The notes under the pieces are model-generated. The model saw nothing but the letters and a program-made list of their open reading frames with translations. It did not search any database and was not told where the DNA came from. Below, one piece after another: positions 1 to 40,398 of a DNA stretch of 40,398 nt. Position numbers and translations under genes: made by a program. This DNA is from a bacterium (GTDB lineage Bacteria > Patescibacteriota > Minisyncoccia > Phycocordibacterales > Phycocordibacteraceae). The first letter of the stretch is position 1. Each line of letters begins with the position of its first letter. The stretch lies in NCBI GenBank assembly GCA_027311385.1, contig DAICZA010000003.1, positions 1-40,398 on the forward strand, written 5' to 3'.

Positions 1-191
1 AACGTAACATTTCGAGGAGAATACGGCGTAAAGAAAGGAGATATCGTTCAAAAACGGCTGTAATAGTTGCAAACGGGTGTAACATTTCAAAACCGAACAA
101 AGCGAACACGAAAAGACGCATTTTGAGTGTTCGGTTTCTGTTTGCTCTCGGGACGAACAGAGCGATCCTATGCGATGGATCCGACTCTCAC

Positions 192-460
192 AAATGAGAC
201 TAATGAGACCATTTTGGGCATAATTTGGAGTCTCACTTTGGCATTTATAAAATACCTGATTCCCCGAGACATGTCATTCACCCGCCATACGGTGGCGTAT
301 TTGCTCAAAATGAGACAAATGAGACACTCCACACATGTCCTCACTGTGTCTCATTTGCCGATTTAAAATGCCAACAAATGCCAATAATTCAGGAAAATGG
401 ATCGGGTACAAATTGGACAAAATGGACAGCCGAGGAGACAGATTGGGCGTGTCCAATTTG
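192..460. repeat. AT-rich field of short direct and inverted motif copies (iteron-like)
   Basis: AAATGAGAC at 192-200, 308-316 and 317-325; TAATGAGAC at 201-209; inverted TGAGAC core at 230-235. AAATGAGACAC (317-327) and GTGTCTCATTT (346-356) form an 11-bp inverted repeat. AAATGCCA at 366-373 and 376-383. AAATGGAT 395-402, CAAATTGGAC 409-418 and AAATGGAC 420-427, with inverted GTCCAATTTG at 451-460. Local GC is about 40%. Confidence 0.6.
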
Positions 461-534
461 ATGGAGTTGCACAATATCCTTTTTGCGAACCGTTCCTGCA
501 GGAGCACGTGAATGCTAGCCGGAATCGTGAATTT

Positions 535-831
535 CTAGACAATCTCAAAAGACTTTGTATTGTAATGCTCCTTGATAATTGCATTGGCGGTTGAATTCAT
601 CGCGCACGATTTGCAGGAAGCGAAGAGGTGCAGACGGTCTCGCTTCCCTGACAGCCATGATAACATTTTTTCCTCAAATTCTTCACGTTCCTTGAAGGAA
701 AGGCGACCGACGTAGAGCGTGGGCTGCAATTTGGACAGGCCGTAATTTTTGCACTGTTTCTCGGCTTGCACCTGGTGCTTCTGACTCGATGTCCGCCAAG
801 CGGCAATCGTGAGAAATCCGGGATCGTTCAT
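535..831 (-). CDS. cas2: CRISPR-associated Cas2-like protein
   Basis: 98-aa ORF whose ATG overlaps the cas1 stop (ATGA at 828-831). Its size and the segment LYVGRLSFKEREEFEEKML recall the Cas2 VYVG...RE region (E. coli-type Cas2, from memory). The call rests mainly on size and coupling to cas1. Confidence 0.6.
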   Translation of the reverse strand: MNDPGFLTIAAWRTSSQKHQVQAEKQCKNYGLSKLQPTLYVGRLSFKEREEFEEKMLSWLSGKRDRLHLFASCKSCAMNSTANAIIKEHYNTKSFEIV

Positions 832-1880
832 GGGGTGTATTCGAAAGGTATATACATCTTTTCCTTCTCCAAAAAGATGCGGGCAAGCAGTTCGCTTTGT
901 TCCGTAATCGCAGCGCGGAGCGTGCGTTTCTTTCCCCGGTGCGCGACTTTCTGGTCGAGGCGCTTCAGGACTGCTCCAACCACCTTGCTCTTCCCTTGTG
1001 CCGAGAGACGGTATTCACTTTTAGCCACGAGTTCGAAATCCCCTCGTTTGCCAAGCTCTTTATTTATAAACAGCGGAATAATCGCGGCATCCACCAGAGG
1101 GACGCGAAATTCCTCCACCATATCGAGCACGAGCGCCGGTTTGCCGTAGCGCTCGGAGTGATACAGACCGAGATACGGATCGAGGCCGATGTACAGGCAG
1201 GCGCGTTCGACTTCGTTATAAAGGATGCCGTAGCCGTAGTTGAGCGCGCTGTTGAATTTGTCCCGGCCTTGCGGGATACGGCCCGGGAATTTGAAGAGTG
1301 TTCTCATGCCTCGCCAGTACCGTTCCGCGATAGAGCCTTCGAGACCGAGCATCTCTTCGTTCGCCCGATTGCTCGGAAGCAGTTTCGCGATTGATTCGAA
1401 CACCGCTTCTGCTTGCATACGCTCCTTTGCGTTTTCAGCACCATATCGGTCGGCAAGATGGCGCATGAAGCGAATCTGATTTCGGCATTTGCCGACAACA
1501 AAGGTACGCGCAAGCTCGAAGGATTTGATTTGATCCGAAGAGGTCGTGAGCTGCGCGCGTCGCAATGTCGCAAGACCCTTCGGGTCGCTCGAGAAGATGC
1601 GGCCAACCGGCTTGCCGAACGCGCCGAGATAGACGATATCCACCTCGTGATCGAGTGCGAGCTGTACGGCATGCATGGAGATAGAGGAAGGTCGCAAAAT
1701 CACTATTTTATTGAGCCGACGAATCGGATACTCCTTTCTTGTTCGCGGAGGTTTCGGCAATCCTGTCTTCCGGCGTTTTCTTCCCGGGGGCAGAGGAGGT
1801 TTAGGGCCGGGAAGAGAGATGGTGATACGCTCGCCAGTCGCCCCGATGAAGGTGCCGTACGTGTCGATGAGTAAATCCAT
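828..1880 (-). CDS. cas1: CRISPR-associated endonuclease Cas1
   Basis: Cas1 hallmark block NALNYGYGILYNEVERACLYIGLDPYLGLYHSERYGKPALVLDMVEEFRVPLVD. The ORF opens at 1898. I prefer ATG 1880 (MDLLIDTYG...) because TTGACT-17nt-TATATC (-10 at 1889-1894) ends 8 nt upstream of it. Confidence 0.9.
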   Translation of the reverse strand: MDLLIDTYGTFIGATGERITISLPGPKPPLPPGRKRRKTGLPKPPRTRKEYPIRRLNKIVILRPSSISMHAVQLALDHEVDIVYLGAFGKPVGRIFSSDPKGLATLRRAQLTTSSDQIKSFELARTFVVGKCRNQIRFMRHLADRYGAENAKERMQAEAVFESIAKLLPSNRANEEMLGLEGSIAERYWRGMRTLFKFPGRIPQGRDKFNSALNYGYGILYNEVERACLYIGLDPYLGLYHSERYGKPALVLDMVEEFRVPLVDAAIIPLFINKELGKRGDFELVAKSEYRLSAQGKSKVVGAVLKRLDQKVAHRGKKRTLRAAITEQSELLARIFLEKEKMYIPFEYTP

Positions 1881-1888
1881 GGGTATAG

Positions 1889-1931
1889 GATATATCATTC
1901 CATTGACTTTCAGTCAATGGCATCGTTTGAT
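1889..1931. promoter_or_regulatory. Back-to-back divergent promoters built on a 21-bp palindrome
   Basis: CCATTGACTttcAGTCAATGG (1900-1920) presents TTGACT on both strands. On the minus strand, TTGACT, a 17-nt spacer and TATATC (1889-1894) point to cas1. On the plus strand, TTGACT (1903-1908), 17 nt and TTTGAT (1926-1931) point toward the recombinase. Confidence 0.5.
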
Positions 1932-2018
1932 GCGCTCTAAAGATACCAACTCACCCCTCATGGACTCCTCCGAGGGGTTGTGGCATCCCTTGTACCTGTA
2001 CCAGATAATACAAGGAAT

Positions 2019-3344
2019 ATGGAAACAACAATGGTTCAGGGCGGTTTCGGAGCGGCGGTCGCTCCAGTCGAAATGGTTCCAGTCCGGTACTGCCTCTATG
2101 CGAGGAAGAGCACCGAGAGCGAAGAACAGCAGGTGTTGAGCATCGATAGTCAGATCAAGGAAATGCTGGTTTTGGCTGAGAAAGAGAAATTGGAGATCGT
2201 CGAAGTGAAGCGTGAATCGCATTCAGCCAAGGAGGCCGGGGCACGACCGATATTCAATGAGATCGTGGAGGAAATTAAGAGCGGCAAGTTCAACGGCATA
2301 CTGACCTGGGCACCAGATCGCATCTCTCGCAACGCGGGCGATCTCGGTCGCATCGTCGATCTCATGGATAGCAAGCACCTGATTGACATCCGCACGTACG
2401 GCCAGCGATTCACGAATAATCCGAACGAGAAATTCTTGCTGATGATATTGGGGAGTCAAGCAAAATTGGAGAACGACAACAAGCGCGTCAATGTGAAGCG
2501 AGGACTCCGAGCGAGAGTCGAGATGGGCCTATGGCCCGGCATCGCGCCCACGGGATATCTGAATGACGGACGAAAGGATCATCGGTGTGAAGTATTAGTT
2601 GATCCCGTCCGCTCCCCTGTCATCAGACAGGTCTTCGAGAAGATCGGGGTGGAGCGCTGGAGCGGGCGAAAAGTACATGCGTGGCTCAAATCGGATATCA
2701 AGTTTGCCTCTCGGATTGGCAAGAGCATGAATCTCTCTACCTTATACAAGATGCTCAAGAATCCCTTCTATTGCGGTGTCTTCGAGTATCCGAGGGGCTC
2801 GGGCTCCTGGTATACCGGCAAGCATACGCCGATCATCACCCAGGAACTCTTCCAGGCAGTCCAAGAGAAGATCGCCGAGGAGAACCGCCCCAAGACCAGG
2901 TTCGAAGAGTGGAACTTCACCAAACTCCTCCTCTGCGGATACTGCGGTTCCGGCATCACCGCCCAAGAGAGAGCCAAGATACTGAGTACCGGTGAACCCG
3001 TCTCCTACGTGTACTACTCCTGCTCCCGCGCCAAGGACGTGAACTGCAAGAATCCGTACCTGCGCGAGGAGAAAGTTATCGAGCAACTCGCTGGTCTGAT
3101 TGACAAGATATCCCTCGACGAAATCGGTGCCCGTCACCTCATTGAGCGCGAAGTGTCGCGATACAACAAGTTACGTGCGGAGGTTGAAGGGAAAAGCGAA
3201 ACCATCAAGGCTAAGGAAATGGACATTCGCAAATATGCAAAGTATCTATTGAAGAATGGATCAAGAGAGGAGAAGCGCGAACTGCTTGAACACTTGCGTG
3301 ACCGTCTGATCTTGAACGACCACATTATCACGCTCGCCGATTAA
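2019..3344 (+). CDS. Large serine recombinase (resolvase domain, recombinase domain and zinc ribbon)
   Basis: N-terminal [22 protein letters not shown] catalytic-serine region and [10 protein letters not shown], then a recombinase domain and CGYC...YYSC...NC zinc ribbon, then a C-terminal coiled coil. The ORF opens at GTG 1980. ATG 2019 is preceded by GATAAT (2004-2009), and ATG 2073 is also possible. Confidence 0.85.
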
Positions 3345-3376
3345 CACAAAAGCGCGACATTCATCGCGCTTTTGTG
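3345..3376 (+). terminator. 13-bp perfect hairpin immediately after the recombinase stop
   Basis: CACAAAAGCGCGA-cattca-TCGCGCTTTTGTG. No clear T-tract follows, so terminator function is inferred from position only. Confidence 0.5.
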
Positions 3377-3446
3377 CGGAAATGACCCTCGCGGTTGCGA
3401 ACTGAAATTGATGCCTCGCGGTCTAAAAACCGCGTGCTGACTGCTG

Positions 3447-3517
3447 TGCGGGATACGAGAATCGAACTCGTGCCTCAACCTTGGGAAGGTCGCGTCCTAC
3501 CACTAAACCAATCCCGC
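3447..3517 (-). tRNA. tRNA-Gly (anticodon CCC)
   Basis: The reverse complement folds as a cloverleaf: GCGGGAT acceptor, anticodon stem CGACC/GGTTG with loop TTCCCAA, T arm ACGAG-TTCGATT-CTCGT, and 3' ATCCCGC-A. CCA is not encoded. Confidence 0.9.
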
Positions 3518-3917: not shown

Positions 3918-5786
3918 TCATTCAGCCGACGATTGGACCATTTTCATAAAGACTTCTTCGGGGATATTCACCTTCCCCCGCCCGCGCTCCAAGAGCTTCT
4001 TCTTGCCGCGCTTCTGCTTGTCCAGGAGCTTGTTCTTGCGCGAGACGTCGCCGCCGTAGAGATAGCCGGTGACATCCTTGCGCATCGCCGAGAGCGTTCG
4101 TGAAGAGATGATGCGGCCCAAGGCGCGCGCCTGGATCTTCGTCACAAAGAGCTGTTTGGGCAGGAGGCCGTGAAGTTTCTCCACCATCTTCTCCGCCTCT
4201 TCCTCCACCCGCCGGCGCGCGACCACGCGCGCAAACGCGGCCACCGGCTCGTCGGCCACCAGCACGTCAAGCCGCACGACATCCGCTTCCCGTTCGGCGA
4301 GGATTTCATACGACAGCGAGGCGTAGCCGGATGAGACGTTCTTCAATTTATCAAAGAATCCGCGCATGAGTTCGCGCAGCGGCATCTCAATGGTCATCTC
4401 AATGCGACCGTCGCCGAACGTCTCGGTCGCGAGTGTCTGCGCCTCGTGGTCGTAGAGCATCTGGACGAGCGCGTTCACCGCCTCGGGCGGCGTGATGATG
4501 ATGACCCGCGCCCACGGCTCCTCAATCTTCAGGATGTCGCCGTATTCGGGGAACTTCGCCGGCGTATAAATGGTCTCGCGGACGCCGCTCGTCTTCGTGA
4601 CCACGTAGGAGATAGTCGGGATAGTGACGATGAGCGTAAGGTTGAATTCGCGGCGCAGGCGTTCGGTAACTATTTCCAAATGGAGGAGCCCGAGGAAGCC
4701 GCAGCGGAACCCGCGCCCGAGCACACCGGAAGACTCTTCCTCAAACGAGAGCGAGGAATCGGAGAGCCGCAGGCGCTCAAGCGATTTGCGCAGGACCGGC
4801 AAGTCATCTTGGCTCTCCGGATACACCGACGCCCACACGACCGGCCGCACCCGCTCGTAGCCCGGGAGCGCGGGCAAGGAGCCCTTCGCCGCACCGATGG
4901 TGTCGCCGACCGCGACGACGCCCGGCTCCTTGATGCCGGTGACAATGTAGCCGATTTCGCCGGCGGAAAGTGAATCGGCGGGCGTCTCGCCTGGCGTGAA
5001 GATGCCGGTCTCAAGCGCGATGAACTCTTTCCCCGCCGCGCGAAACGCAAGCGGCTGGCCTTTCTTGAACGTGCCGTCAAACACGCGCAGATACACGGCG
5101 ACGCCGCGGTGCGTGGAATACGAGAAATCAAAAATAAGTCCGCGCGGTTCCTCGCCGGCGGACGGCGCGGAACCGCGCGGCGACGGAATGCGCGTCACGA
5201 TGGCTTCCAGCAGTTCGGCAACGCCCGCACCCGTCTTCCCCGACACTGCAAGCACCTCCTCGGGCGAGGCGTGCACGAGCTTGGCGAGCTCCGCCTTCAC
5301 CTCGTCCACGCGCGCGGCGGGAGAATCTATCTTGGAGAGCACCGGGATGACGACGCACCCCTGCGCCTCGGCCATTGCGAGCGTTGTCAGGGTTTGCGCC
5401 TGGACGCCATGGGTGGCATCCACAAGGAGAAGCACTCCCTCCACCGCATGGAGCGCGCGCGAGACTTCGTACGAGAAATCAATGTGCCCCGGAGTATCAA
5501 TCAAGTTGAGTACGTAGTCGCCGTACTGCATCCGTACGGGCTGCATTTTGATGGTAATGCCGCGCTCGCGTTCCAGGTCCATACGGTCAAGCACCTGGTC
5601 GCGCATCAATCGCTCGGGAATGGCGCCGGTGCGCTCCAAGAGGCGGTCGGCCAGCGTTGATTTGCCATGGTCTACATGGGCAATGATAGAGAAATTGCGA
5701 AAGTGTTCTTGGTTCACCCCGTTAGAGACCCGATTCGCAGACGAATCGGCAGACATTCCAGATGTCTTGTCTCTAACGGGGTTCAT
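3918..5786 (-). CDS. lepA: Elongation factor 4 (LepA)
   Basis: [32 protein letters not shown], and a LepA-type C-terminal domain. ATG 5786 overlaps the murJ stop (ATGA). An alternative GTG at 5717 would remove the 23-aa extension encoded by a palindromic element. Confidence 0.95.
5716..5782. repeat. Palindromic element, copy 1 (14-bp perfect terminal inverted repeats ACCCCGTTAGAGAC)
   Basis: ACCCCGTTAGAGAC (5716-5729) pairs with GTCTCTAACGGGGT (5769-5782). Two internal hairpins are present: CCGATTC-gcagac-GAATCGG and AGACAT-tccag-ATGTCT. The element lies between the murJ stop and the conserved lepA core. Confidence 0.8.
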
Positions 5787-7510
5787 GGCTGGAGCGGCTC
5801 GTCGCCGGAGGGAGGAAGTATGGCGGAGCGGCCGGTATGCGTCCGGATGAGTTTCCCGAGCGCGCTGGTCACGATGCCGAATTCCTCGTTCTCAAGGAAA
5901 TAGAGCGCGAGCGCCGAGGCGGCAAGGCCGACAATGCCTGCGACAAGACCCTGCGTGAGGACGGACATAAGCGTCGTCAGGGGCGCGATGCCGCCCTCAA
6001 GCGTCAGCACCGCGTACGCAGCCGCGCCGCCCGCAACGGCGGCGATGGAGCCGTCCAGAGCCGGACGCAGGAGCGTCCGGCTGAGTCCGGGAGCGATATT
6101 CCGAAGCGCGATGAGCGACAGAAACACGAGGAAGAATTGTCCGAGGATGTTCGCGAGCGCGAGAAGCAGAATGCCCGTCCCGGGCACGTCGGACACTTTC
6201 AGAAACGCCGCGAGCGAAGCGGGCATGCTGCTATTCGGCATCGCGAGGAACACGAACGCGAGCACGACCGTGAGTGCGCCGCCGGCAATCTGGTACGCAA
6301 GCGGCCGCCAGGACTGGCGCGCCGCGTAGAGCGCGCGCGAGAACAGTAATTCCAGCGCGTCCACGACCAAGCCGACGACGGCGATAGCAAGGAGCGCCGC
6401 CGTGAGGCGCGTCGCGTCCCAATTAAACGCGCCGGTCCCGAGCACGACTCGGACGATATGCGCACGCAAGACGACGACAAGCCCGAGCGCCACGATAGAC
6501 CAGAGGATGATGTGCCGCGCGCTCGTGGAAAGAATTTTCATAAATTCATCATGCTTCTTCAAGGAGAGCGCTTCGGAGAGCGCCGGGAACGCCGCAACGG
6601 CATAGGAGGAACCGATGATGGCGAGCGGAACCGCCTCCAGATTGCCGGCGAAGGTGAACACCGATACCTCGCCCGTGCCGAGCCGGGACGCCATCGCCGT
6701 CAGAAACAGCATCGTGAAGGAGTTCACGCCGAGCGCGAGCGAGCGCGGCACGGAATTCTGCACGACCGGCCTCATAAGCGCAAAGGATGGGAGACGGAAG
6801 CGCGGCAGTACGCCGGCGCCGATGACGACCGGTATATTGACGGCGAAGTATCCGACCGCGCCGATGACCACGCCGATGCCGATGCCCGGCAAGCCCCACA
6901 GGGGATACAAAACGACCGTGCCGAAGATGATGCCGAGATTGTAGAGAACCGGCGAGAGCGCGAAGAGGACGAACCGCCGGTGCACCTGCGTGACGCTCGC
7001 AAAGACGCCGGAGAGGCCGAGCAAGATGGGCTGGACGAGCAGAATGCGCGCAAGGAGAACAAACTGCGGCTGGTACGCCGAGGTAACGAAATCCGGATAG
7101 AGAAACGCCAAGAACTGCGGCATAAAGATGCCGATAATGACGCAAATGACGCCGCCGACGCTAAGGAGGAACGTTGCCGATTCGGAGAGGAGCCGTCGCG
7201 TCGCGTCGCGATCCTGCCCGGTAATAAGCGGAATGATAACGTACGCACTCACCAAGGACGACACCAGTGCGAAGACCAGATCCGGCATACGAAACGCCGC
7301 ATAGTAGAGGTCCAGCACCTGCCCCGCGCCGAAGGTGTGTGCAAAGGTGCGGTCGCGGAGAAGTGCCAAAGCCTGCGACGCGAGCGTGAGCGCGGCGAGC
7401 AGATACGCGGCCTGATGCAGGCCGCGTATCGGCGCGGCAATACGCGAATACGCGGCTTTCCTAAGCCCGCGTATTGGTGCCGCGATGCGCTCATACGTCT
7501 CCCGAACCAT
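5783..7510 (-). CDS. murJ: Lipid II flippase MurJ/MviN
   Basis: Polytopic membrane protein with [30 protein letters not shown], typical of the MurJ N-terminus. The ORF opens at 7546. I prefer ATG 7510 because TACTAT (7517-7522) is 6 nt upstream and a terminator hairpin with T-tract ends at about 7549. Confidence 0.85.
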
Positions 7511-7555
7511 TGCCTCATAGTACCCTTTTTCCGCCGCGTTCTCCATAGGAAAAAC

Positions 7556-7588
7556 GGAAAAGGGGCGCCCGACTGGACGCCCCTTTCC
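7556..7588 (-). terminator. Rho-independent terminator after the O-antigen-ligase-like gene
   Basis: GGAAAAGGGGCG...CGCCCCTTTCC stem. On the minus strand it is followed by TTTTT (plus-strand A-run 7550-7554). Confidence 0.65.
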
Positions 7589-7606
7589 TAAAAATGCTTC
7601 TGACGA

Positions 7607-10018
7607 TTACTGAGCCGGTGCGGGCGCGGCCGCCGGCGTCGTCGGTGCCGGGCTGGCCGATGCGGGCGTTACCGAGAGGAGATTCGCCGGGAACGGATTC
7701 TTCCCCGCTTGGAGCTCGGCAAGCTGGGCGGCGACCGCCTTTGCGTTATCAGCCGACATATCCGAGATCGCCTGCACCTGTGTGATGGCATCCGGGAAAT
7801 TCTTCTGCTTCGCGTACACCGCCGCGAGGAAGTAGCGCGCGTTTGCGAATTGCGGATTCGCAGTGACCGCCGCGGAGAGCGCCGAGACGGCGTTCGCGAG
7901 GTCGTTCTGCGCCGCATACAGGATGCCGACCTGGAAGAGGATGTTCGGGTCGTTCGGCGTGAAGTACGCCGCGGCGAGTGCCGAGGTAAGCGCGTCTTTT
8001 ACGTTGCCGTCCTGCACCTCAAGCTGGGAGAGGAGGAAGATGGCGGCCGTATAGTCCTGCTTGAGCGCGATGGCGGCCTTCAGGTCGGCCTCGGCGGACT
8101 TGTTGTCCTTGTTCGCGATATCAAGCTGGGCGAGGACGTACGGTATCTGCGGATTCGTCGGATTGAGTTTCTGGGCACTGTCGTAGGCGGACTTCGCGCT
8201 GTCATAGGCGCCCTTCACGCCAAGCGGCACCGCCTGGGCGTAGAGATTACCGAGCGCAAGCCAGTTCTGGTAGTCGGACGGCATGAGGCGCGTCGCAGTC
8301 AGGGCCGCGTTGATACCAGTGGAGAGTGCCGTCTGGAACGCCTGCTGGGCGGCGGACGTTGGCATCGTTGACGATGCGACTATCTGGCTCAAACGCCCGG
8401 TGGCGACACCCGCTTCAATCTGATACGCGGCGGCGGTCGGTGCGAACGCGACGGAATTTTGCGCCGCCTGGTCGGCCTGGTCCAGGTTCCCCGCGGAGAA
8501 TGCCGCGCCGGCACTGGCGAGTTCCGCCGTGGCAATGGCGCGCCCGACGAGCGTATACGCGGCGACCACCGATGCGAGCAGAAGGATAGTCAGCGAGAAT
8601 ACGATGACGAAGCCGAGCCGCGGGCTCCGCGAGAAGATGACGCCCCATTGCTGGCTCCGCGCGGCGAAGCGCGTCGTGGACACGAAGAGACCGGCGAAGA
8701 CGAACGCGAGCACGAGGATGACCGCATTCGGCAGGTCAAAGACCGCGGTCGCGAAGAGGTAGAGCGCCGACACGAACGAGAGTATCGCGACGTAGCGGAC
8801 AAACGCGTCCTCCGGCGCGCGCAAGATAAGCATGCGCAAGCCGCACACGATGAACAGGAGGAGGAACGCAACCCACGCGAGCGCCCCCGCGAGACCGGTC
8901 GTCACGAGCGAGGTCGGGATGAAGCCGATGCCGGACGAGAAATCAATATTCCAGAACACGGTTGAGTTGAGCGATGCGTCGCGGTATTTGAGCCATTCTA
9001 CGCCGAACGTGCCCGGGCCGGATCCGAAGATCGGCGTGGTGGCGTAGGACTGGTGCGCAACCGAGAACGTTGACTGCCAGGAGGGACGGACATTCAGCAC
9101 ATTGACGTGGAGCGCATTCGCCAAAGCGCCGCCGAGCGTTCCGCCGATGAGGAAGAAGAGCGACACGGCAAGCACGAGGAGCGGCAGAACGAGCGAATGG
9201 CTGCCCTCGTCCGCCTCAGGCGTCGCGTCGCCAAGCATCGCCGCTTCATCTAGGTCGCCGTCGGCAGACTTGGGACCGCGCTGCATCACCGCCTCAACAA
9301 AGAGCCCGAGCGAGACGAGCGCAAGGAGCGTCCAGACGAGAGAGGAGTTGGCGATAGCGAGCAGGAACAGCGCCGCAATGCCGCTCGCGGCGAGCAGTTG
9401 GTACGCGCGGCGCGGCAATTGAAGGAACCGGAACGTGATGAGGACGCCGACGACGCCGAGCCCCATCAGGAACGCGAGGTCGTTAAACGAACCGACGAGC
9501 GAGAACGCGGGGGAAATGGTATTCGGCGCAAACTGCCCGATGATGACCACCAACACTTCAAGAAGCGCAGCGACGCCGAACACAAACGCACTGGTGCGCA
9601 GGAAAGAGCGGTAGTGTTCGGAACGGCGGAGGATGAATGCGGCGAGCGTACCGAGAACGGCCGCGACGAGCATAAAGCCGAACGTATCCGGTTCAAGCGC
9701 CGTTCCCCAAAACGTAGTGCCGAATGCCACGCCCGAGAACGATGCCGAGAGCGCGTAGGCGATAGCCGGCAGCCACAATGCGCCGACGAGCATAAACGGC
9801 GGGAGGATAATGTTCCCGCGCGCGAGCCGCGCGAGGATGTAGAGCGCAAGCGTGATGAGCGCGCCTGCAGCAAGCAGGAAGGTTTTCGTCGTGGAAAGTG
9901 GAATCGCCGAAGACGGGATGAAAAAGAACACGCCCACGATGAGTGTCACAAGAAGCGCCCACACACTTATGGTCTCAAGCGAACGTCGGCGCGAAGCCGT
10001 TGGTTGATACGGAGGCAT
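7607..10018 (-). CDS. Large polytopic membrane protein: O-antigen ligase/Wzy-like region plus C-terminal TPR repeats
   Basis: 803 aa with more than 10 predicted TM helices. The C-terminal ~250 aa are degenerate 34-aa TPR-like repeats (e.g. NWLALGNLYAQ, NILFQVGILYAAQNDLANAVSALSAAV, ARYFLAAVYAKQKNFPDAI). Confidence 0.65.
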   Translation of the reverse strand: MPPYQPTASRRRSLETISVWALLVTLIVGVFFFIPSSAIPLSTTKTFLLAAGALITLALYILARLARGNIILPPFMLVGALWLPAIAYALSASFSGVAFGTTFWGTALEPDTFGFMLVAAVLGTLAAFILRRSEHYRSFLRTSAFVFGVAALLEVLVVIIGQFAPNTISPAFSLVGSFNDLAFLMGLGVVGVLITFRFLQLPRRAYQLLAASGIAALFLLAIANSSLVWTLLALVSLGLFVEAVMQRGPKSADGDLDEAAMLGDATPEADEGSHSLVLPLLVLAVSLFFLIGGTLGGALANALHVNVLNVRPSWQSTFSVAHQSYATTPIFGSGPGTFGVEWLKYRDASLNSTVFWNIDFSSGIGFIPTSLVTTGLAGALAWVAFLLLFIVCGLRMLILRAPEDAFVRYVAILSFVSALYLFATAVFDLPNAVILVLAFVFAGLFVSTTRFAARSQQWGVIFSRSPRLGFVIVFSLTILLLASVVAAYTLVGRAIATAELASAGAAFSAGNLDQADQAAQNSVAFAPTAAAYQIEAGVATGRLSQIVASSTMPTSAAQQAFQTALSTGINAALTATRLMPSDYQNWLALGNLYAQAVPLGVKGAYDSAKSAYDSAQKLNPTNPQIPYVLAQLDIANKDNKSAEADLKAAIALKQDYTAAIFLLSQLEVQDGNVKDALTSALAAAYFTPNDPNILFQVGILYAAQNDLANAVSALSAAVTANPQFANARYFLAAVYAKQKNFPDAITQVQAISDMSADNAKAVAAQLAELQAGKNPFPANLLSVTPASASPAPTTPAAAPAPAQ

Positions 10019-10900: not shown

Positions 10901-11245
10901 GCGGACCGGGCTGGGCGATCGCTCCGCAGGAAACTGCGGGGAGGAAAGTCCGAACATGCTCCCGCCGCAAGGCGGGAAATAGGTAGCGGGTAACGCCCGT
11001 CGTCCGCGAGGATAGAGGTGACCACAGAAACGTCAACGCCGAAAGGCCGCGAATTCCCTCGTGGAATAGGTCCGCCGCGAGGCGGAAATGCAACGAACAA
11101 ATCCTTACCCGCATGCAAGGCCGTGCCCGACTTCGGTCGGGAGTGCCGCTCGAGCCTGACGGCAACGTCGGGCCCAGATAAATGACCGCCTCGGCCCTCT
11201 TCATGAAGGTCCAGACAGAATTCGGCTTATCGGCCCGGTCCAACT
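10901..11245 (+). ncRNA. rnpB: RNase P RNA, bacterial type A
   Basis: Universal elements GGAGGAAAGTCCGAAC, ACAGAAA, AGATAAATGACCGCC and ACAGAATTCGGCTTATCGG are present. P1 pairing is GGACCGGGC (10903-10911) with GCCCGGTCC (11233-11241). Confidence 0.95.
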
Positions 11246-11294: not shown

Positions 11295-13676
11295 CTACAC
11301 TATCTCGCAGGTGCCGCCGGCGCACGCCAATTCCCTTTTCATGTCGCTCTCGTCCTGCCGTTCGTACGCGATGAGCTGGGAGTAATCCACCTTCGGGAAG
11401 CGCGCGAGGCGCTCCTCGTACTCCTCTTTCGTAATGGCTTCGTAGGGCGCGAGACGATACACATGATTGGAACGCGGGAGGAACGAGAGTCCACCGATGA
11501 TGTCCCAGTTTTTCTGAATCCAGTCCACGACGCCGATCCACTCATCCTCGCCCACTGAAACGGTCGCTGACGGGTTGTGATGCGTATAGTTGAGCTTCAC
11601 CATCTTCCAATACTCCAGCTGGTCAAGCGCCGTAAGGTCGTCCTTGAAACGCGCCTCCTTGGAGTGGTCGGGCGCCTTGACCGGGAATTCAAACACGAAC
11701 GTATTCGCCTCTTCCATAGACTGCCCTACCTCCGGGTAATACGGCACGCCCTGAGCGCGGAGCATCTTGAAGAGCGAGTCTGTTGCGCTGATGCGCACGC
11801 GGCGGATGTAGTACGGCGCGTGACGCGGGTGGATGCCGGAGGCGCAGTTAAATGTCTGCGAGACGGTGCCCGAGGGCTTCACCGCCGTGACCGACATAGA
11901 GCGTTCAATGCCGAATCGCTTCGCGTACGCCGCGTTTGTCTTGTCGGCCATATCGCGCATTTTGCGCATCACCTCGGCCCGGCGCACGACCGGAGAGTCC
12001 CACTGCCCCGTGATAGACACGCCGAGAAGCCGCTCTTTCTTATTGTGGTCAGTCCAGTCCTTGGAAATGTACTGGAAATTCGTAAGTGTGGATTGGTACG
12101 TGCCGATGAGAGCCGCAAGGCGCGCCTTCCGGAGGAGCGAAGCCTCGGTGTCGTGTGCGCGCGCGATGACTTCCGAGAGATTGCAGAACTGCTTGGACTG
12201 CAGGATGATTTCGGCGCACGGATTCGTGCCGACAGGACCGTGCGTCACGCCGTCCTCGCCGATGAACCCGATTGACTTGAAATAATCCACGCGACGTTTC
12301 GGCATCGTCTTTGCAAGCGAACCGCGGTTAAAGATGCCTCGCTCACCGCTCCCGCTCTTCATAAGCGCGACCCACTCGTCCATCAGCTCGGCGTTGGTCG
12401 GCTGGGTCTCATACACTGCTGAGTTATTGGCGACGGCGCGATGCGGGTCGGTCATATAGAACTGGCCCTTCTTAGCGTCGCGCATTTCCACGTCGTCCAG
12501 GTCGGAGAGCGATATCATCGCGGTGCGGCGCACGCCGCCGGCGACCACGCACTCGCCGATCTTGCAGATGACGTCGTGCGCATCAATGGCGCGCAGACGG
12601 CGCCCCTGGCGGCGCAGGACGCGCTCGCGTGCAAAGGCAAGCAGGGACTTGAGCGGTTCGGGGCCGCTCGCCTTCCCGCCCATCGTCTTCAGTCGCGCGC
12701 CTGCGGGGCGAATCTGCGAGAAATCAAACGTAATATCCTTGCCGGCGTACCACGTCGTGAGTCCGAGCGTGAGTGCATCGCACCAGCCCTCCTTGGAATC
12801 GGCAATGACGTGCGTCTCCAGTTTCTTCCCCGACTGCTTCATAATTTGCGGAAGCTGTTCCACATTCTGGCTCTCTACCGCAAAACCGACGCCGGCACCC
12901 TGCATAGACAGGTACATAATTTCAGCGAAGTCTTCCAGCTTGGTCGGCGCGGTAAACGTGCAGTTGTACGCGCACGTGTTACAGCGGCGCGCCGCCTCGC
13001 CCGAGAACTGCATCAAGCGCATTGAAGGCATCACTTCCTGCTTCAAGATACCCGTACGCACCTCGGAGTATTCTTTCTCGGTCAGTTTGTTGCCGAGGTT
13101 CTCGCGCATAAAACTGATGTAGCGGTCCACGGTCTCAATCCACGTCTCGCGGCGGCCCTCCTCCGGAATCCATTTCGCGTACGTGCGCAGGTAGACGAAC
13201 TCGCCGAGCGCGTTGCCGTCAAAATATTTCTTACTCTCCTCGGCGAGCTTCTTCACATGCGCCGGTATCTCCACGTGCGCGGCGCGCAGCTGCGCGCGCT
13301 TGTCGCGGTAAAGGATGTACGCCTTCGCCGTCTTCACGTAATCATTGAGAATGAGGTATTTCTCCACCGAATCCTGCATACCCTCAACCGTCGGGAGGAA
13401 ACTCTTGTACTTTTTAGAGAATCGCCCGAGCTCGCCGGAGACTTGGTGCGCAACGAGGACCGCATCTTCCTGGCCGCCTTCCCCCGCTTCCGCCATCGCC
13501 TTCTGCACGGCGGTGACAATCTTGTCAAAATCAAACGCGACGAGCCGACCGTCGCGTTTCTCCACTTGCGGAATCATTTCGCGGTATCGCAACGTCTCCT
13601 TTGAGACCGCCTGCTTTGCAACGGCAGTCGCGGTCGCGGTCTTCGTACGGGCGGAAACTTTTGCGGTTTTGGACAT
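11295..13676 (-). CDS. nrdJ: Class II (adenosylcobalamin-dependent) ribonucleotide reductase
   Basis: N-terminal ATP-cone (VEKRDGRLVAFDFDKIVTAV), GTNPCAEIILQSKQFCNLSEV active-site loop, and C-terminal redox tail CAGGTCEIV. Confidence 0.9.
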   Translation of the reverse strand: MSKTAKVSARTKTATATAVAKQAVSKETLRYREMIPQVEKRDGRLVAFDFDKIVTAVQKAMAEAGEGGQEDAVLVAHQVSGELGRFSKKYKSFLPTVEGMQDSVEKYLILNDYVKTAKAYILYRDKRAQLRAAHVEIPAHVKKLAEESKKYFDGNALGEFVYLRTYAKWIPEEGRRETWIETVDRYISFMRENLGNKLTEKEYSEVRTGILKQEVMPSMRLMQFSGEAARRCNTCAYNCTFTAPTKLEDFAEIMYLSMQGAGVGFAVESQNVEQLPQIMKQSGKKLETHVIADSKEGWCDALTLGLTTWYAGKDITFDFSQIRPAGARLKTMGGKASGPEPLKSLLAFARERVLRRQGRRLRAIDAHDVICKIGECVVAGGVRRTAMISLSDLDDVEMRDAKKGQFYMTDPHRAVANNSAVYETQPTNAELMDEWVALMKSGSGERGIFNRGSLAKTMPKRRVDYFKSIGFIGEDGVTHGPVGTNPCAEIILQSKQFCNLSEVIARAHDTEASLLRKARLAALIGTYQSTLTNFQYISKDWTDHNKKERLLGVSITGQWDSPVVRRAEVMRKMRDMADKTNAAYAKRFGIERSMSVTAVKPSGTVSQTFNCASGIHPRHAPYYIRRVRISATDSLFKMLRAQGVPYYPEVGQSMEEANTFVFEFPVKAPDHSKEARFKDDLTALDQLEYWKMVKLNYTHHNPSATVSVGEDEWIGVVDWIQKNWDIIGGLSFLPRSNHVYRLAPYEAITKEEYEERLARFPKVDYSQLIAYERQDESDMKRELACAGGTCEIV

Positions 13677-15034: not shown

Positions 15035-15124
15035 TGGCGGAGGCGGAGAGATTCGAACTCTCGAGACCCTTTCGAGCCTGCCGCCTTTCCAAGGCGGTGG
15101 AATAAACCACTATCCGACGTCTCC
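15035..15124 (-). tRNA. tRNA-Ser (anticodon GGA), CCA encoded
   Basis: GGAGACG acceptor, anticodon stem CCGCC/GGCGG with loop TTGGAAA, long variable arm, T arm GAGAG-TTCGAAT-CTCTC, and 3' CGCCTCC-G-CCA. There is an A5:C68 mismatch in the acceptor stem. TATGAT (15131-15136) lies 6 nt upstream of the 5' end. Confidence 0.9.
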
Positions 15125-22504: not shown

Positions 22505-22581
22505 TGGTGGGCGTGCCTGGACTCGAACCAGGAACCGCCGAGGTATAAGCTCGGTGCTCTAACCAATTGAGCTACACGCCC
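22505..22581 (-). tRNA. tRNA-Ile (anticodon UAU), CCA encoded
   Basis: GGGCGTG-TA-GCTC-AATTGGTTA-GAGC-A-CCGAG-CTTATAC-CTCGG-CGGTT-CCTGG-TTCGAGT-CCAGG-CACGCCC-A-CCA. All stems are Watson-Crick. Confidence 0.9.
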
Positions 22582-24866: not shown

Positions 24867-24907
24867 AAAAAATGAAAATCCACTCGGATGAGTGGATTTC
24901 ATTTTTT
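24867..24907 (-). terminator. Rho-independent terminator directly after tmRNA
   Basis: AAAAAATGAAATCCACTC-atcc-GAGTGGATTTTCATTTTTT on the minus strand. It starts 2 nt after the tmRNA 3' end. Confidence 0.85.
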
Positions 24908-24908
24908 G

Positions 24909-25329
24909 TGGAGGCGGGGGGAATTGGACCCCCGTCCGAATCTGGCCAAGAAAGCGAGTCTACGACGCATAGTCGACGTTAGCTTTGAGGCAGGATGCGA
25001 GGAACGCCGGCGAAACCATTCCTGCCCGATCCCTTATTTAAATGCGCCGGACGGGAGGCCGGGCACCGAGTTCACAGATAATTCCGCCCATCTCCTACGC
25101 TGTGAACGCCGAGAGAAGATGAACGTCGCGCGAGGCGATGGCGAGCTTACGCTCGAGCCGTCGCGTAGGCGAACGCAATGTCGCCGACCTTACCGAAGTA
25201 AGGAGACTTCGTTGCGCTTGCAAGAGTGTTCTTGGCAAGTTTGGTTGCTCGGACGGATTACAGTGTCATACGAGCGTGCACTGCGTCGCACGTCTTTCAA
25301 GGTACAGACCGTCAAAGCCGGTCACCCCC
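24909..25329 (-). ncRNA. ssrA: tmRNA (SsrA)
   Basis: 5' GGGGGTGACCGGCTTTGACGG and 3' GGACGGGGGTCCAATTCCCCCCGCCTCCA form a tRNA-Ala-like acceptor with G3:U70. It lies 39 nt downstream of smpB. CCA is not encoded (CAA follows). Confidence 0.9.
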
Positions 25330-37991: not shown

Positions 37992-38378
37992 ATGTTCACT
38001 TCGATATTCAACTGGTTGAAAACACTTGGGAAACCAGAAGCAACCGAGCAGGAGATTCAAGATTACATTGCGAGATTGGAGAGAGCTGTTGAAGAGCTCA
38101 CAATCGAACTTGATTATCGAGAATACCTTGCGAAGCAAGAAGCAGAGAGAGAAGCTTTTGAACGTGAAGACCGGGAAAGAGAACGAGAAAACCTTGAGTA
38201 CTGGCCTGTATGTAAAGAAGAGATTGATGAAGAAGATCTCGCCAGAGAAGAGAAGGAGCGCAGGGATCGTGAAGAGGAGGAAAGGCAGCAGCATTATCTC
38301 AGCCATTGTCCTCATTGCGGTTCGCGAATTCGTCTCGGCAGATGTTCCGCCTGTGACGACGCTTTTGGTAGAAATTGA
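37992..38378 (+). CDS. Acidic coiled-coil protein with C-terminal CxxC...CxxC zinc ribbon
   Basis: An AAGGAGA SD lies 5 nt upstream. An E/R-rich helical middle (EAEREAFEREDRERERENLE...EEKERRDREEEERQ) is followed by CPHCGSRIRLGRCSAC. GC is lower than in the core genome. Confidence 0.65.
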   Translation: MFTSIFNWLKTLGKPEATEQEIQDYIARLERAVEELTIELDYREYLAKQEAEREAFEREDRERERENLEYWPVCKEEIDEEDLAREEKERRDREEEERQQHYLSHCPHCGSRIRLGRCSACDDAFGRN

Positions 38379-38386
38379 GTAAACTG

Positions 38387-38427
38387 ACCCCGCCTTTCGG
38401 AAACGACTGGTGGGGTTTCTTATTTGG
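38387..38427 (+). terminator. Rho-independent terminator of the zinc-ribbon gene
   Basis: ACCCCGCC...GGTGGGGT stem (one G:U pair) followed by the T-rich TTCTTATTT. Confidence 0.65.
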
Positions 38428-38469
38428 AATTCGCCTTTTGTGGATAGACCCATCCTTTCGTCCCCACCC

Positions 38470-38610
38470 AATCGCCGCGGAGTACCGCGGCGATTCCCTT
38501 GTCCCGCCAGGCCGGCCATCACGGGACCTTCATCCCGTTAGAGGCAGGTCTTTTAAAAGACCGTCGGCTCTAATGGGAAAACCTACCGGGATTTAGGATT
38601 TTCCGAGCTA
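38470..38610. repeat. Cluster of hairpins in the convergent intergenic region, including a degenerate copy of the CCCGTTAGAG element
   Basis: AATCGCCGCGG-agta-CCGCGGCGATT (38470-38495). ACGGGA-ccttca-TCCCGT (38521-38538). CCCGTTAGAG (38534-38543) versus CTCTAATGGG (38568-38577), enclosing the perfect palindrome GGTCTTTTAAAAGACC. GGAAAA...TTTTCC (about 38576-38603). Confidence 0.6.
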
Positions 38611-38664
38611 TTTAGGTAATCCCCAACCTCATTGAATTTATAGCTTTATTTGATATTCTTAGCC

Positions 38665-39663
38665 TTAAGGCCTCCCAGGGTTACCTGGTGGGGTCCCCGA
38701 AGGGACAGAAGGACTGCGGTATTCGACCAAGGCCTTTGTAAATTCGGAGACTCTGTCACGTGCAATGGTGGATAGTATTGTTCTAGAAATCTCTTCGGGC
38801 CCGCCCTTCTTATGAAGAGAATTCATCAATGAGTTTGCTCGATTGATGCGCGACTCGACACGTCGTTTTTTAGCTTCTGAAGCTATCGGGAATGATCGAC
38901 CATATGTACTATTGAAATGTGCCCAACCAAATAAATCCGCGACCTCTAGCCCAAAACTTAAACCTTTTTTATTTTGAAAAGTTAAGCTATGAATACGTTT
39001 CAAACAAAATTTCGCCCACATCTGATACCTTGGTGTATGAGCAAAAGTTGATTTGTGACTTGCAGATATAAATGCCGCTAGCACTGCATCATCTTCTTGT
39101 CTTCGCGATTCCGCCATCACTTCTCCATATGCATCCTTAGTCTCTAGAAAGTGACCGAATTCGAGAATGAGTTTGCGAGCAAGTGCTTCATATAAGAAAT
39201 CGTTAAGGCCTTCCCTCTTTATAAAATCCATCACCAACCGGTCAGATACATTACGTCTTCGAGCGATACGAGTGATTCGTTCCCTATACCAGCTTTTGTC
39301 GATTCGATAAATAAAACAATACATATCAGCCCCTTCAATCAAACCTGTAAGGCGTTTAAAGAACGTGTCAATCCGCGGGTACGGGATTCTTCTGTGTCTA
39401 CGCGTTCCATCTCGATTCTTGAGTAGTCCGCCATCAACGGTGTACATCTTCTCTCGTTCGCCTTCAAATAAATCGAAAGCATGGATATTTTCAGTGGTCG
39501 GAATACTAGATTTCTCCTTGAGTGAAATCATGTAGCTGGAGAGTGCAGAATGTAAATCTTTATCAATTATAAGACCCGAGAGCAGGAAATCATCATGGTC
39601 ATCAGACAACTTTGACTTACCTGATTCGTCAATAAACAGAATGTAATTCTGTTGCTTTTGCAT
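38665..39663 (-). CDS. DUF3800 family protein
   Basis: The N-terminal NYILFIDESGKS motif and overall length fit DUF3800 as I remember it. The ATG is 4 nt after the stop of the upstream helicase-peptidase gene. GC is about 40%. Confidence 0.7.
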   Translation of the reverse strand: MQKQQNYILFIDESGKSKLSDDHDDFLLSGLIIDKDLHSALSSYMISLKEKSSIPTTENIHAFDLFEGEREKMYTVDGGLLKNRDGTRRHRRIPYPRIDTFFKRLTGLIEGADMYCFIYRIDKSWYRERITRIARRRNVSDRLVMDFIKREGLNDFLYEALARKLILEFGHFLETKDAYGEVMAESRRQEDDAVLAAFISASHKSTFAHTPRYQMWAKFCLKRIHSLTFQNKKGLSFGLEVADLFGWAHFNSTYGRSFPIASEAKKRRVESRINRANSLMNSLHKKGGPEEISRTILSTIARDRVSEFTKALVEYRSPSVPSGTPPGNPGRP

Positions 39664-39667
39664 GCAT

Positions 39668-40398
39668 TTATTGTATCAAACCGCTCGGCTTGATAACTTC
39701 TTGAACAATTCCCTGCACACTGTCACTCTCGCCGGGAGTAATCGGCATATGCTTTTTATTTGTACTCCTAGGAATTAGCAGACGAATGCCGTCTTTTCGT
39801 GGACCATATTCTTTAATGGTGACGTTTTCACCACCAAGAAGGGCTATGACCCGGTCACCCGTATCAGCTTTTTCTTGCAGACGGCATAGTACGAGATCAT
39901 CATCATTTATGCCCGCGAGATTCATCGAGTCACCCTCAGCCCTGAGAATGAAATATCTGAATCCAGGTTTTATTTTTGACTTCTCCACTAAAATATAGTC
40001 TTCAATATTCTGTTCTCCTACTAATGGATTACCACACGGAGCCGAGCCCACCAGCGGCACACGGATCATGTCTATAGTAATTGGCGACAAAACAGGTGTA
40101 ACGTATTTCTGATAACTTTCTCTTGTCTCAATTCTACTTTTGAAAAACTTCTCTGTTTCTTTGTCTACAAAATACACATAGCATCCCTTCATTCCGCGAG
40201 TAAGAAGGACACGATAGGTATTTTTAAGGAGGTCGACAAGTTTTTCTCCAGAACGCTTCACGACACTGTCTGCGGATTTCTCCCTTAATGCAATCCAGGT
40301 TTGATTCTCGAAGTTGTAAACAAGATCAGGACCGATGATGACCCCCACGTAATCAAACTCGAAGCCTTGAATCGTATAGATGCTCCCTATTTGATTCA
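39668..40398 (-). CDS. DUF2075/Schlafen-type SF1 helicase C-terminus fused to a LexA/UmuD-like S24 peptidase (5'-truncated by the window edge)
   Basis: The frame stays open to the window end (the M in the track is an internal GTG). IYTIQGFEFDYVGVIIGPDL and YRVLLTRGMKGCYVYF are helicase motifs of DUF2075 type. Next come IRVPLVGSAPCGNPLVGEQNIE (LexA-like cleavage region), GDSM (Ser nucleophile) and VTIKEY (Lys). Confidence 0.75.
   Translation of the reverse strand, partial: NQIGSIYTIQGFEFDYVGVIIGPDLVYNFENQTWIALREKSADSVVKRSGEKLVDLLKNTYRVLLTRGMKGCYVYFVDKETEKFFKSRIETRESYQKYVTPVLSPITIDMIRVPLVGSAPCGNPLVGEQNIEDYILVEKSKIKPGFRYFILRAEGDSMNLAGINDDDLVLCRLQEKADTGDRVIALLGGENVTIKEYGPRKDGIRLLIPRSTNKKHMPITPGESDSVQGIVQEVIKPSGLIQ

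Follow-up and report, generated by a model that had tools for sequence, protein, structure and literature searches.

The window analyzed here, a stretch of 40,398 nt from contig DAICZA010000003.1 (assembly GCA_027311385.1) of a Patescibacteriota bacterium of the family Phycocordibacteraceae, carries at its left edge the CRISPR adaptation genes cas1 and cas2, a divergently transcribed large serine recombinase (LSR) gene, and a tRNA-Gly(CCC). An initial annotation, made by reading the sequence, had described cas1 with a coupled 98-aa Cas2-like ORF and neither effector nor cas4, as well as an LSR whose terminal hairpin ends 70 nt from the 3' end of the tRNA. Both observations are reproduced by domain and RNA gene scans (Pfam, TIGR00287, and a Cas2 profile for the former; domain scan, ARAGORN, and Rfam for the latter). 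The annotation was also right that the 534 nt past cas2 lack a periodic repeat, but it missed a lone CRISPR-type repeat, herein called R. The segment is composed as follows, with coordinates in the window and the strand in parentheses; labels such as L002 or L017 denote fetched contigs or loci that were compared with the window.

1..465 (no strand): inner part of the left arm, non-coding and AT-rich; collinear with L102 and running on for 69 nt to the contig end
466..502 (+): lone CRISPR-type repeat R of 37 nt, GTTGCACAATATCCTTTTTGCGAACCGTTCCTGCAGG, separated by 32 nt from the cas2 stop; homologous units known from >40 loci
503..534 (−): short leader-like segment separating R from the cas2 stop; partially conserved among loci
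535..831 (−): putative divergent cas2, 98 aa; Pfam Cas2, family profile, Foldseek; 4-nt overlap with cas1
828..1898 (−): cas1, 356 aa; Pfam Cas_Cas1, TIGR00287
1899..2018 (no strand): divergent cas1/LSR intergenic region, including the palindrome 1897-1908/1912-1923
1980..3344 (+): LSR with Resolvase, Recombinase, and Zn_ribbon_recom domains
3345..3376 (no strand): perfect 13-bp hairpin after the LSR stop; arms 3345-3357 and 3364-3376, 100% complementary
3387..3408 (+): right-arm 22-mer CCTCGCGGTTGCGAACTGAAAT, a direct repeat of a copy near the left contig end
3414..3446 (+): right end of the element, consisting of the hairpin CCTCGCGGT-CTAAAA-ACCGCG and then TGCTGACTGCTG, reaching the tRNA; junction common to six tRNAs
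3446..3517 (−): intact tRNA-Gly(CCC), the integration target; ARAGORN, Rfam 3447-3517 with 64.3 bits

An exact look-up of Cas1 returned one contig with an identical protein, NCBF01000007.1 (GCA_002255405.1, 54,079 bp), and the window is the reverse-complemented end of this contig. It adds 69 nt to the left of position 1 and then stops, 603 nt past cas2. No canonical array with an effector is in view in 1–3446 plus these 69 nt, and no tandem or CRISPR-like periodic repeat occurs in 1–534; the array or effector that the initial annotation had considered just beyond position 1 is absent from the extension, which holds a further copy of the 22-mer. The lower GC content noted earlier is apparent, with 43% in 1–500 and 50–56% in 501–3500 compared with mostly 57–67% beyond. 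No Rfam family matches in 1–3445, and scans for promoters and terminators gave signals no better than those of shuffled sequence.

The LSR contains the YARKST serine motif, read from the translation, and exhibits Resolvase (1e-20), Recombinase (1.9e-13), and Zn_ribbon_recom (4.3e-08) domains, i.e. the catalytic serine motif together with the recombinase and zinc-ribbon domains of an LSR. Its longest ORF begins with the GTG at 1980, and the 441-aa database call with the ATG at 2019. The LSR family comprises at least 8,000 members, since every scored candidate passed E≤1e-40. Among the matches listed, at least seven are 87–92% identical to the LSR of the window, all of them in Patescibacteria-type contigs. 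Homology to L002, an element without cas genes, starts at window position 1941. Downstream of the LSR stop, the hairpin at 3345–3376, which ends 70 nt before 3446, is kept in L003, L004, L005, L017, L097, L100, and L102. It forms part of a conserved right arm of ~100 nt made of the LSR stop, the hairpin, the 22-mer, and CCTCGCGGT-loop-ACCGCG up to TGCTGACYGSTG, and this arm always ends at the complement of the tRNA discriminator base. The right junction motif ...CTGACYGSTG, followed by TG and the tRNA 3' end, is found at six different tRNA genes.

tRNA-Gly(ccc): window, L004, L041
tRNA-Gly(gcc): L003, L097-99, L102
tRNA-Gly(tcc): L100
tRNA-Glu(ctc): L005, a relic without LSR
tRNA-Arg(tct): L002
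tRNA-Arg(cct): L017

The relic in L005 (6470–6581) is a right arm of ~110 nt—hairpin, 22-mer, and junction, with no recombinase—between a Mur ligase gene and tRNA-Glu(ctc), and represents either a deletion remnant or a miniature derivative.

At the opposite side, unrelated host DNA gives way to the left end TGCCCCCTCRCTGTWCTG in L002, L100, and L102. The left arm spans ~770 nt and is non-coding and motif-rich (L102 1541–2313), with no gene called in the L102 counterpart. Window positions −67 to 429 are collinear with L102 1754–2313 (73.8% over 560 nt, E 5e-107), and the left flank of the window further aligns with portions of this arm in L100, L002, and L097. Because of this collinearity with the left arm of siblings lacking cas genes, the DNA to the left of cas2 is element DNA. 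By the same alignment with L102, the left junction should lie ~215 nt outside the contig, so that the element would measure ~3.7 kb; the remaining ~215 nt of the left arm are predicted to end in TGCCCCCTC. The left arm further contains short repeated motifs in an iteron-like pattern, namely AAATGAGAC (with four copies in the window), GTAACATTT, AAACCGAACAAAGCGAAC, and AAATGCCAAC. Such motifs might be bound by a directionality factor or in a replication function of the excised circle.

The extra 69 nt at the left contig end hold CCTCGCGGTTGCGGACTGAAAT, which matches window 3387–3408 in direct orientation at 21 of 22 positions, with 0 such matches expected by chance. L002 and L100 likewise have a left and a right copy of the 22-mer. 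When one genome per species was scanned, four single matches came up, all in metagenome-assembled genomes of Patescibacteria. The 22-mer was considered as a CRISPR repeat and as an att core, and both were rejected given the single matches in four genomes and the position inside conserved arms. It lies 38 nt from the right junction and, in L002 and L100, more than 200 nt from the left one. Being inside the arms and away from both junctions, it is an internal, sub-terminal feature. The 9-nt repeat CCTCGCGGT of the initial annotation is present at 3387 and 3414 but belongs to the conserved right-arm module and is not an att core.

Between the left arm and the LSR lies a cargo slot whose content differs among sibling elements.

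Window, L041, L017: cas module
L002: 208-aa ORF, with a RelE/SocA toxin–antitoxin pair on the other side of the LSR
L100, L102: hypothetical proteins

In L097, where the LSR is 92% identical, an Avd and reverse-transcriptase pair as in diversity-generating retroelements (6288–7698) immediately precedes the LSR in the slot, with CobT_C and AAA_5 genes further upstream. The complete R-cas2-cas1-LSR block is found in L041 at tRNA-Gly(ccc) with 82% nucleotide identity and in L017 at tRNA-Arg(cct) with 78%. Because L017 carries the same block at a different tRNA gene, the cas genes move with the LSR element. Empty tRNA-Gly(ccc) sites are present in the syntenic loci L103 and L104 (LepA 92% and 88% identical), in which the gene order is kept up to tRNA-Gly(ccc) and is followed by glutaredoxin, tRNA-Arg, and tRNA-Phe, with neither LSR nor cas genes. 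Hence, the junctions, the same ends at different sites, and the empty sites of an LSR element are all found, with the left junction of the window's own copy lying off the contig. A second copy of the tRNA 3' end, which had been anticipated as the far boundary, was not found. Direct repeats of the tRNA 3' half (18–41 nt) do occur 70–175 nt downstream of the tRNA in L103 (9283–9395) and L104 (9677–9850); they resemble a scar left at this tRNA by an earlier, distinct integration.

Positions 1–3446 of the window thus very probably represent most of a ~3.7-kb LSR element integrated at tRNA-Gly(CCC), with an effector-less cas1-cas2-R cargo in which Cas1–Cas2 would act on R. The element family is common in Patescibacteria (Paceibacteria/Kaiserbacteria-like genomes). 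Of the two possibilities raised by the initial annotation, cargo of an integrating element and a stand-alone adaptation module, both turn out to apply: the first is borne out by the right end at six tRNAs, the block in L017, the collinear left arm, and the two empty sites, and the second by relatives without a normally spaced array or a nearby effector. The anatomy and boundaries of the element, the mobility of the LSR element and of the block, and the conservation of R and of the catalytic-type residues of Cas1 are established by comparison of sequences. In mechanistic terms, the LSR would recombine a site on the element (...GCTGACTGCTG-TG-CCCCCTCACTG...) with one on the chromosome that is provided by the tRNA acceptor and T-arm, using as core the TG common to both junctions. 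Since the target tRNAs compared have similar T-arm sequences (GAATCGAAC), several tRNA genes would be usable by the LSR family.

The cargo is one self-contained module of ~1.45 kb, made of cas1, the divergent cas2, the leader-like stretch of ~30 nt, and one R. The Patescibacteria family to which this module belongs is large and lacks both nearby effectors and a canonical array. The Cas1 of the window matches Pfam Cas_Cas1 (E 1.2e-61) and TIGR00287 (219 bits versus a cut-off of 71.7, E 8e-65). The subtype-specific NCBIfam Cas1 models score best for I-D, I-G, and I-C, every one far under its cut-off. The catalytic-type residues E187, H247, D259, and E262 are invariant in 36 of 36 family members spanning 54–85% identity. 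The closest solved structure is Synechocystis Cas1 (7cr6, E 4e-31); further solved relatives include A. fulgidus Cas1, the I-G and I-C complexes, and the M. mazei casposase (6opm). One search gave 678 Cas1 homologues at E≤1e-20, most of the matches listed being full length, and no relatives of the Cas1 family were found in IMG/VR. Within residues ~30–55 (window 1730–1810), the Cas1 of the window has a lineage-specific, Pro/Lys/Arg-rich insertion of ~20 aa, PGPKPPLPPGRKRRKTGLPKPPRTR, that is absent in most family members.

The small 98-aa ORF is, as judged from profiles and a structure model, a divergent Cas2. Alone, it matches Pfam Cas2 with E 0.0033, under the gathering score, and a profile of 21 members of its family retrieves only Cas2 chains from the PDB (best E 5.8e-4). 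A single-sequence model of low confidence (pLDDT 57) has the order β-α-β-α-β, and the best Foldseek matches of this low-confidence model are nearly all Cas2. The gene adjoins cas1 in 62 fetched loci. The Asp position of β1 is not conserved and reads W-R/E/D-T in the 21-member alignment. In L017, the closest LSR-linked relative, cas2 (2989–3282) has an in-frame stop at codon 20. The two hallmarks of an adaptation module, a Cas1 integrase domain with metal-binding residues and a Cas2 partner beside it, are hence both present.

R was first noticed as a short match at window 464–504 that recurs in the contexts of close Cas1 homologues. More than 40 loci of the Cas1 family, with Cas1 identities as low as ~42%, have a homologous unit of 36–37 nt at a distance of 30–100 nt past cas2. 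The consensus of these units is GTYGCACAAY..CCTTT...CGA........TGCAGG, with partly complementary termini. The adjoining stretch 503–534 is partly conserved among loci as well (e.g. ...TGCAGG-AGC.... to the cas2 stop) and, by analogy, may serve as a leader. R was also examined as an RNA structure and rejected as too weak, the terminal pairing (columns 4–8 with 30–34) being 82% paired with only three compensatory cells and the internal hairpin 76%.

The copy number of R is often one, even where more than 9 kb of downstream sequence is available (L052, L065), and otherwise two to five. Within one genome the copies are identical or near-identical—a single 1-nt variant occurs, in L006—and all have the same orientation. 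In multi-copy loci they are restricted to the cas2 side, with 17 extra copies in the downstream flanks and 0 in the upstream flanks. The distances between copies are 220, 586, 628, 707, 793, 1299, 1327, 1369, 1377, 1411, 1416, 1519, 1584, 2414, 2939, 4796, 7045, and 7709 nt. A spacing of 60–80 nt was never seen, and normal array spacing is absent from all Cas1-family loci examined; ordinary arrays with a period of 73–77 nt do occur in the same metagenome scan, next to distant Cas1 relatives (28–33% identity). Only the 36–37 nt are duplicated, and the flanks of R copies are unrelated to each other.

The DNA between R copies has a GC content somewhat unlike that of the host flanks and contains whole genes plus truncated ones, such as a patatin domain cut off at position 118 of the 191 in its profile and an SpvB/FG-GAP gene extending into the repeat. 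Cassettes common to the R arrays of different genomes were not found, nor were remnants of cas1 or cas2 in the inter-R segments (one match per locus). The encoded proteins mostly have no matches in PHROGs and Pfam; compared with viral contigs, one has 392 relatives and another none. Gene direction is mostly uniform within one array (5/5 in L006, 5/5 in L007, 3/3 in L015) and differs between arrays, a uniformity that purely random capture of fragments does not predict.

Strain differences are located exactly at R. Contigs with 100% identical cas1, cas2, leader, and R continue into three unrelated sequences from the first base past R. The first is common to L008, L009, L066, and L067. The second, in L010 and L011, has 64–69% GC versus 53–57% in the L008 flanks; its ORF adjoining R is truncated. 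The third, in L064, begins with what appears, judged by eye, to be the C-terminal end of a tyrosine-recombinase gene abutting R. In a second lineage, L033 and L034 show the same break at the distal edge of R. The truncated ORFs found against R in these lineages look foreign. Among the window, L041/L056, and L017, whose Cas1 proteins are 93–94% identical, homology also ends at the outer edge of R. As the contigs were assembled with k-mers longer than R, chimeric assembly joins at R seem unlikely. Identical or one-base-different repeats and strain differences exactly at R together argue for recent activity.

No effectors were found within 10 kb in the gene tables of seven loci, two of them on contigs of 674 kb and 1.08 Mb; the neighbors in all seven are housekeeping genes only. 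None of 15 large neighboring ORFs matches a Cas family, and 5 of the 15 have no match at all. Neither a periodic array of 60–80 nt nor effector genes, the two parts that would complete a CRISPR–Cas system, were thus found in the neighborhoods searched. Large ORFs of 929, 696, and 577 aa directly after R (L057 2242–5028; L020 7247–11030) have no Pfam or NCBIfam match, and the 929-aa ORF has no sequence match in the PDB.

For the function of the module, the following mechanism is proposed. Cas1–Cas2 would use R as an integration site. In the sister genomes, long foreign DNA of 0.2–7.7 kb would have been inserted at R by staggered cuts at both repeat borders, with R being duplicated. Such an insertion would explain the exact duplication of 36–37 nt, the single orientation, the restriction to the cas2 side, and the strain differences at the outer edge of R. 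The copy in the window would then be either a module without an insert or one whose insert lies beyond the contig end. The unorthodox part of this proposal is the insert size. That cas1-cas2-R is an effector-less, CRISPR-derived system that inserts kilobases of foreign DNA at R to form a "giant-spacer" array—serving DNA or gene capture, or an RNA-level defense without a Cas effector, and spread by small LSR elements—is put forward tentatively, as a serious possibility that falls somewhat short of even chances.

Several observations weigh against this picture of an LSR element with an active adaptation module. The contig ends inside the left arm, and the left junction of the window copy is deduced and not seen. 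Because only one R is present, the window itself bears no sign of Cas1–Cas2 activity. A direct 22-mer repeat near both ends is not expected from serine-recombinase chemistry. The context of the block is not constant, since L041/L056 and L017 have no left arm within 2.2–4.6 kb of R. The in-frame stop in the cas2 of L017 means that some copies decay. The search for effectors and arrays reached the neighborhoods of the loci and not whole genomes, so a distant effector or array would have been passed over. Short prespacers are what canonical Cas1–Cas2 measures, and we know of no experimental precedent for kilobase inserts made by a Cas2-associated Cas1.

The alternative that survives best is that the ~1.45-kb cas1-cas2-R unit is itself a minimal, casposon-like self-inserting element that hopped into the LSR element, and that the kilobase-spaced R copies elsewhere are the footprints of such units or of their cargo. 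It is compatible with the explanation preferred here and retains a small but appreciable probability. In its favor, genomes with 85–93% identical Cas1 have the unit in unrelated gene neighborhoods, and 8 of the 18 inter-R distances cluster at ~1.3–1.6 kb, near the size of the unit. Flanking direct repeats exist in L008 (18 nt, 9969–9986 and 11419–11436, abutting R with a spacing of 1450 nt) and in L050 (~71 nt, 5620–5690 and 7292–7362); however, these are the only two among 26 loci tested. Terminal inverted repeats and a polymerase were not seen, and the inter-R segments lack remnants of cas1 or cas2.

It is unlikely that the module is a decaying remnant, in which effector and array were lost and non-functional genes stayed behind with a leftover repeat. 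The missing effector, the lone repeat, the unconserved β1 Asp of Cas2, and the internal stop in L017 would fit such a decay. However, the 678 Cas1 homologues with four invariant residues in 36 sequences, the company of cas2 and R across the identity range of 54–85%, and the within-genome repeats that are identical or one base apart, with strain differences exactly at R, speak against it.

That the window shows the edge of an ordinary CRISPR–Cas locus, with array and effector just past the contig end and the assembly broken at the array, is highly improbable. The contig does stop 603 nt past cas2, the sister contigs L041 and L004 break near the same region, and assemblies often break at repeats or strain-variable DNA. 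However, those 603 nt are collinear with the left arm of LSR elements devoid of cas genes, the relatives that extend further past R (L056 by 4.6 kb, L017 by 2.2 kb) show no further repeat and no cas match, and the family contigs of 674 kb and 1.08 Mb have kilobase-spaced repeats only and no effector within 10 kb; this third possibility of the initial annotation is thereby set aside. Equally remote is the notion that cas1-cas2 is resident chromosomal DNA beside which an LSR element landed at tRNA-Gly: most family loci do lack an LSR next to cas1-cas2, but L017 has the same block beside another tRNA, cas2 is flanked on its far side by left-arm DNA, and the syntenic empty sites are without both LSR and cas genes.

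With the reading as an LSR element carrying an adaptation module, the locus can be placed among known systems. It resembles canonical adaptation modules (class 1, I-C/I-D/I-G) in the acidic and His residues of Cas1, the overlapping small Cas2, and the 36–37-nt repeat with complementary termini just downstream. Unlike them, it has no cas4, effector module, or periodic array, and its leader comprises only ~30 nt; the repeats are single or 0.2–7.7 kb apart, and the subtype cut-offs are widely missed. A Cas1-family integrase tied to mobile DNA and to insertion of long DNA is shared with casposons, whose solved representative 6opm is among the relatives of Cas1. In contrast to casposons, Cas1 here has a Cas2 partner and mobility is supplied by a serine recombinase; the casposon features, i.e. 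a family-B polymerase, terminal inverted repeats, and a regular target-site duplication of 14–15 bp, were not found, flanking repeats being limited to 2 of 26 loci.

Like other LSR elements (Bxb1, phiC31, SCCmec Ccr, XisF-type), the element has a three-domain LSR—with weak matches to CcrB and XisF models—encoded near one end, precise junctions, site-specific insertion, variable cargo, and empty sites. It differs from them by its size of only ~3.7 kb, the lack of phage or conjugation genes, the targeting of several tRNA 3' ends, the long, motif-rich, non-coding left arm, the sub-terminal 22-nt direct repeat, and the CRISPR adaptation cargo. The sister loci resemble integrons in layout only, in that an integrase gene lies beside same-orientation short sites spaced by gene-sized segments. 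Unlike in integrons, there is no tyrosine recombinase (IntI) beside the arrays and no attI or attC; the repeats are CRISPR-like units of 36–37 nt that are near-identical per genome, and the segments often contain truncated genes. CRISPR parts as mobile cargo with few repeats are also known from CRISPR-associated transposons, type IV plasmid systems, and phage mini-arrays or solitary repeat units. Those systems have effectors and/or short RNA-guiding spacers, usually without cas1-cas2; here, the situation is reversed.

The individual parts—Cas1, Cas2, LSR, and integration at tRNA genes—are known. Their combination looks new, i.e. an adaptation-only module with a lone repeat on a 3.7-kb LSR element, a phylum-wide family, and kilobase-spaced repeats. 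No prior description of the cas1-cas2-R module or of the LSR element was found in the full-text literature, with subscription journals mostly outside the search, so that an earlier description is possible. In the usual description, CRISPR–Cas is almost absent from Patescibacteria (the candidate phyla radiation). The present locus is indicative of a large family of conserved adaptation-only modules in this phylum, which standard array finders would miss because the repeats are single or kilobases apart. If long DNA is indeed inserted at R, this would be the first Cas2-associated Cas1 to handle gene-sized DNA, bridging casposons and CRISPR adaptation. It would then also suggest a new route of gene acquisition or defense in ultra-small symbionts and possibly a programmable integrase for long DNA. 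The LSR element shows, as a vehicle, how cas genes spread, and the compact LSR family, whose ends are mapped precisely and which targets several tRNAs, is a candidate tool for genome engineering. Should the module be inert, a family of small tRNA-targeting LSR elements with interchangeable cargo is still documented.

Outside the element, a second island of low GC content (41–49%) lies at the right edge of the window (38000–40398), where the window end truncates it. The genes on this island, for a DUF3800 protein (38665–39663, −) and for a fusion of a C-terminal piece of a Schlafen-type helicase with an S24 peptidase (39668–40348, −), make it resemble defense or mobile-element DNA. The window further contains the bacterial RNase P RNA (10903–11245), the transfer-messenger RNA (tmRNA; 24906–25329), and a tRNA-Ser(gga) at 15035–15124 that is called by ARAGORN and not reported by Rfam at the gathering score. 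A tRNA-Ile with the anticodon TAT, an unusual decoding solution, is located at 22505–22581.

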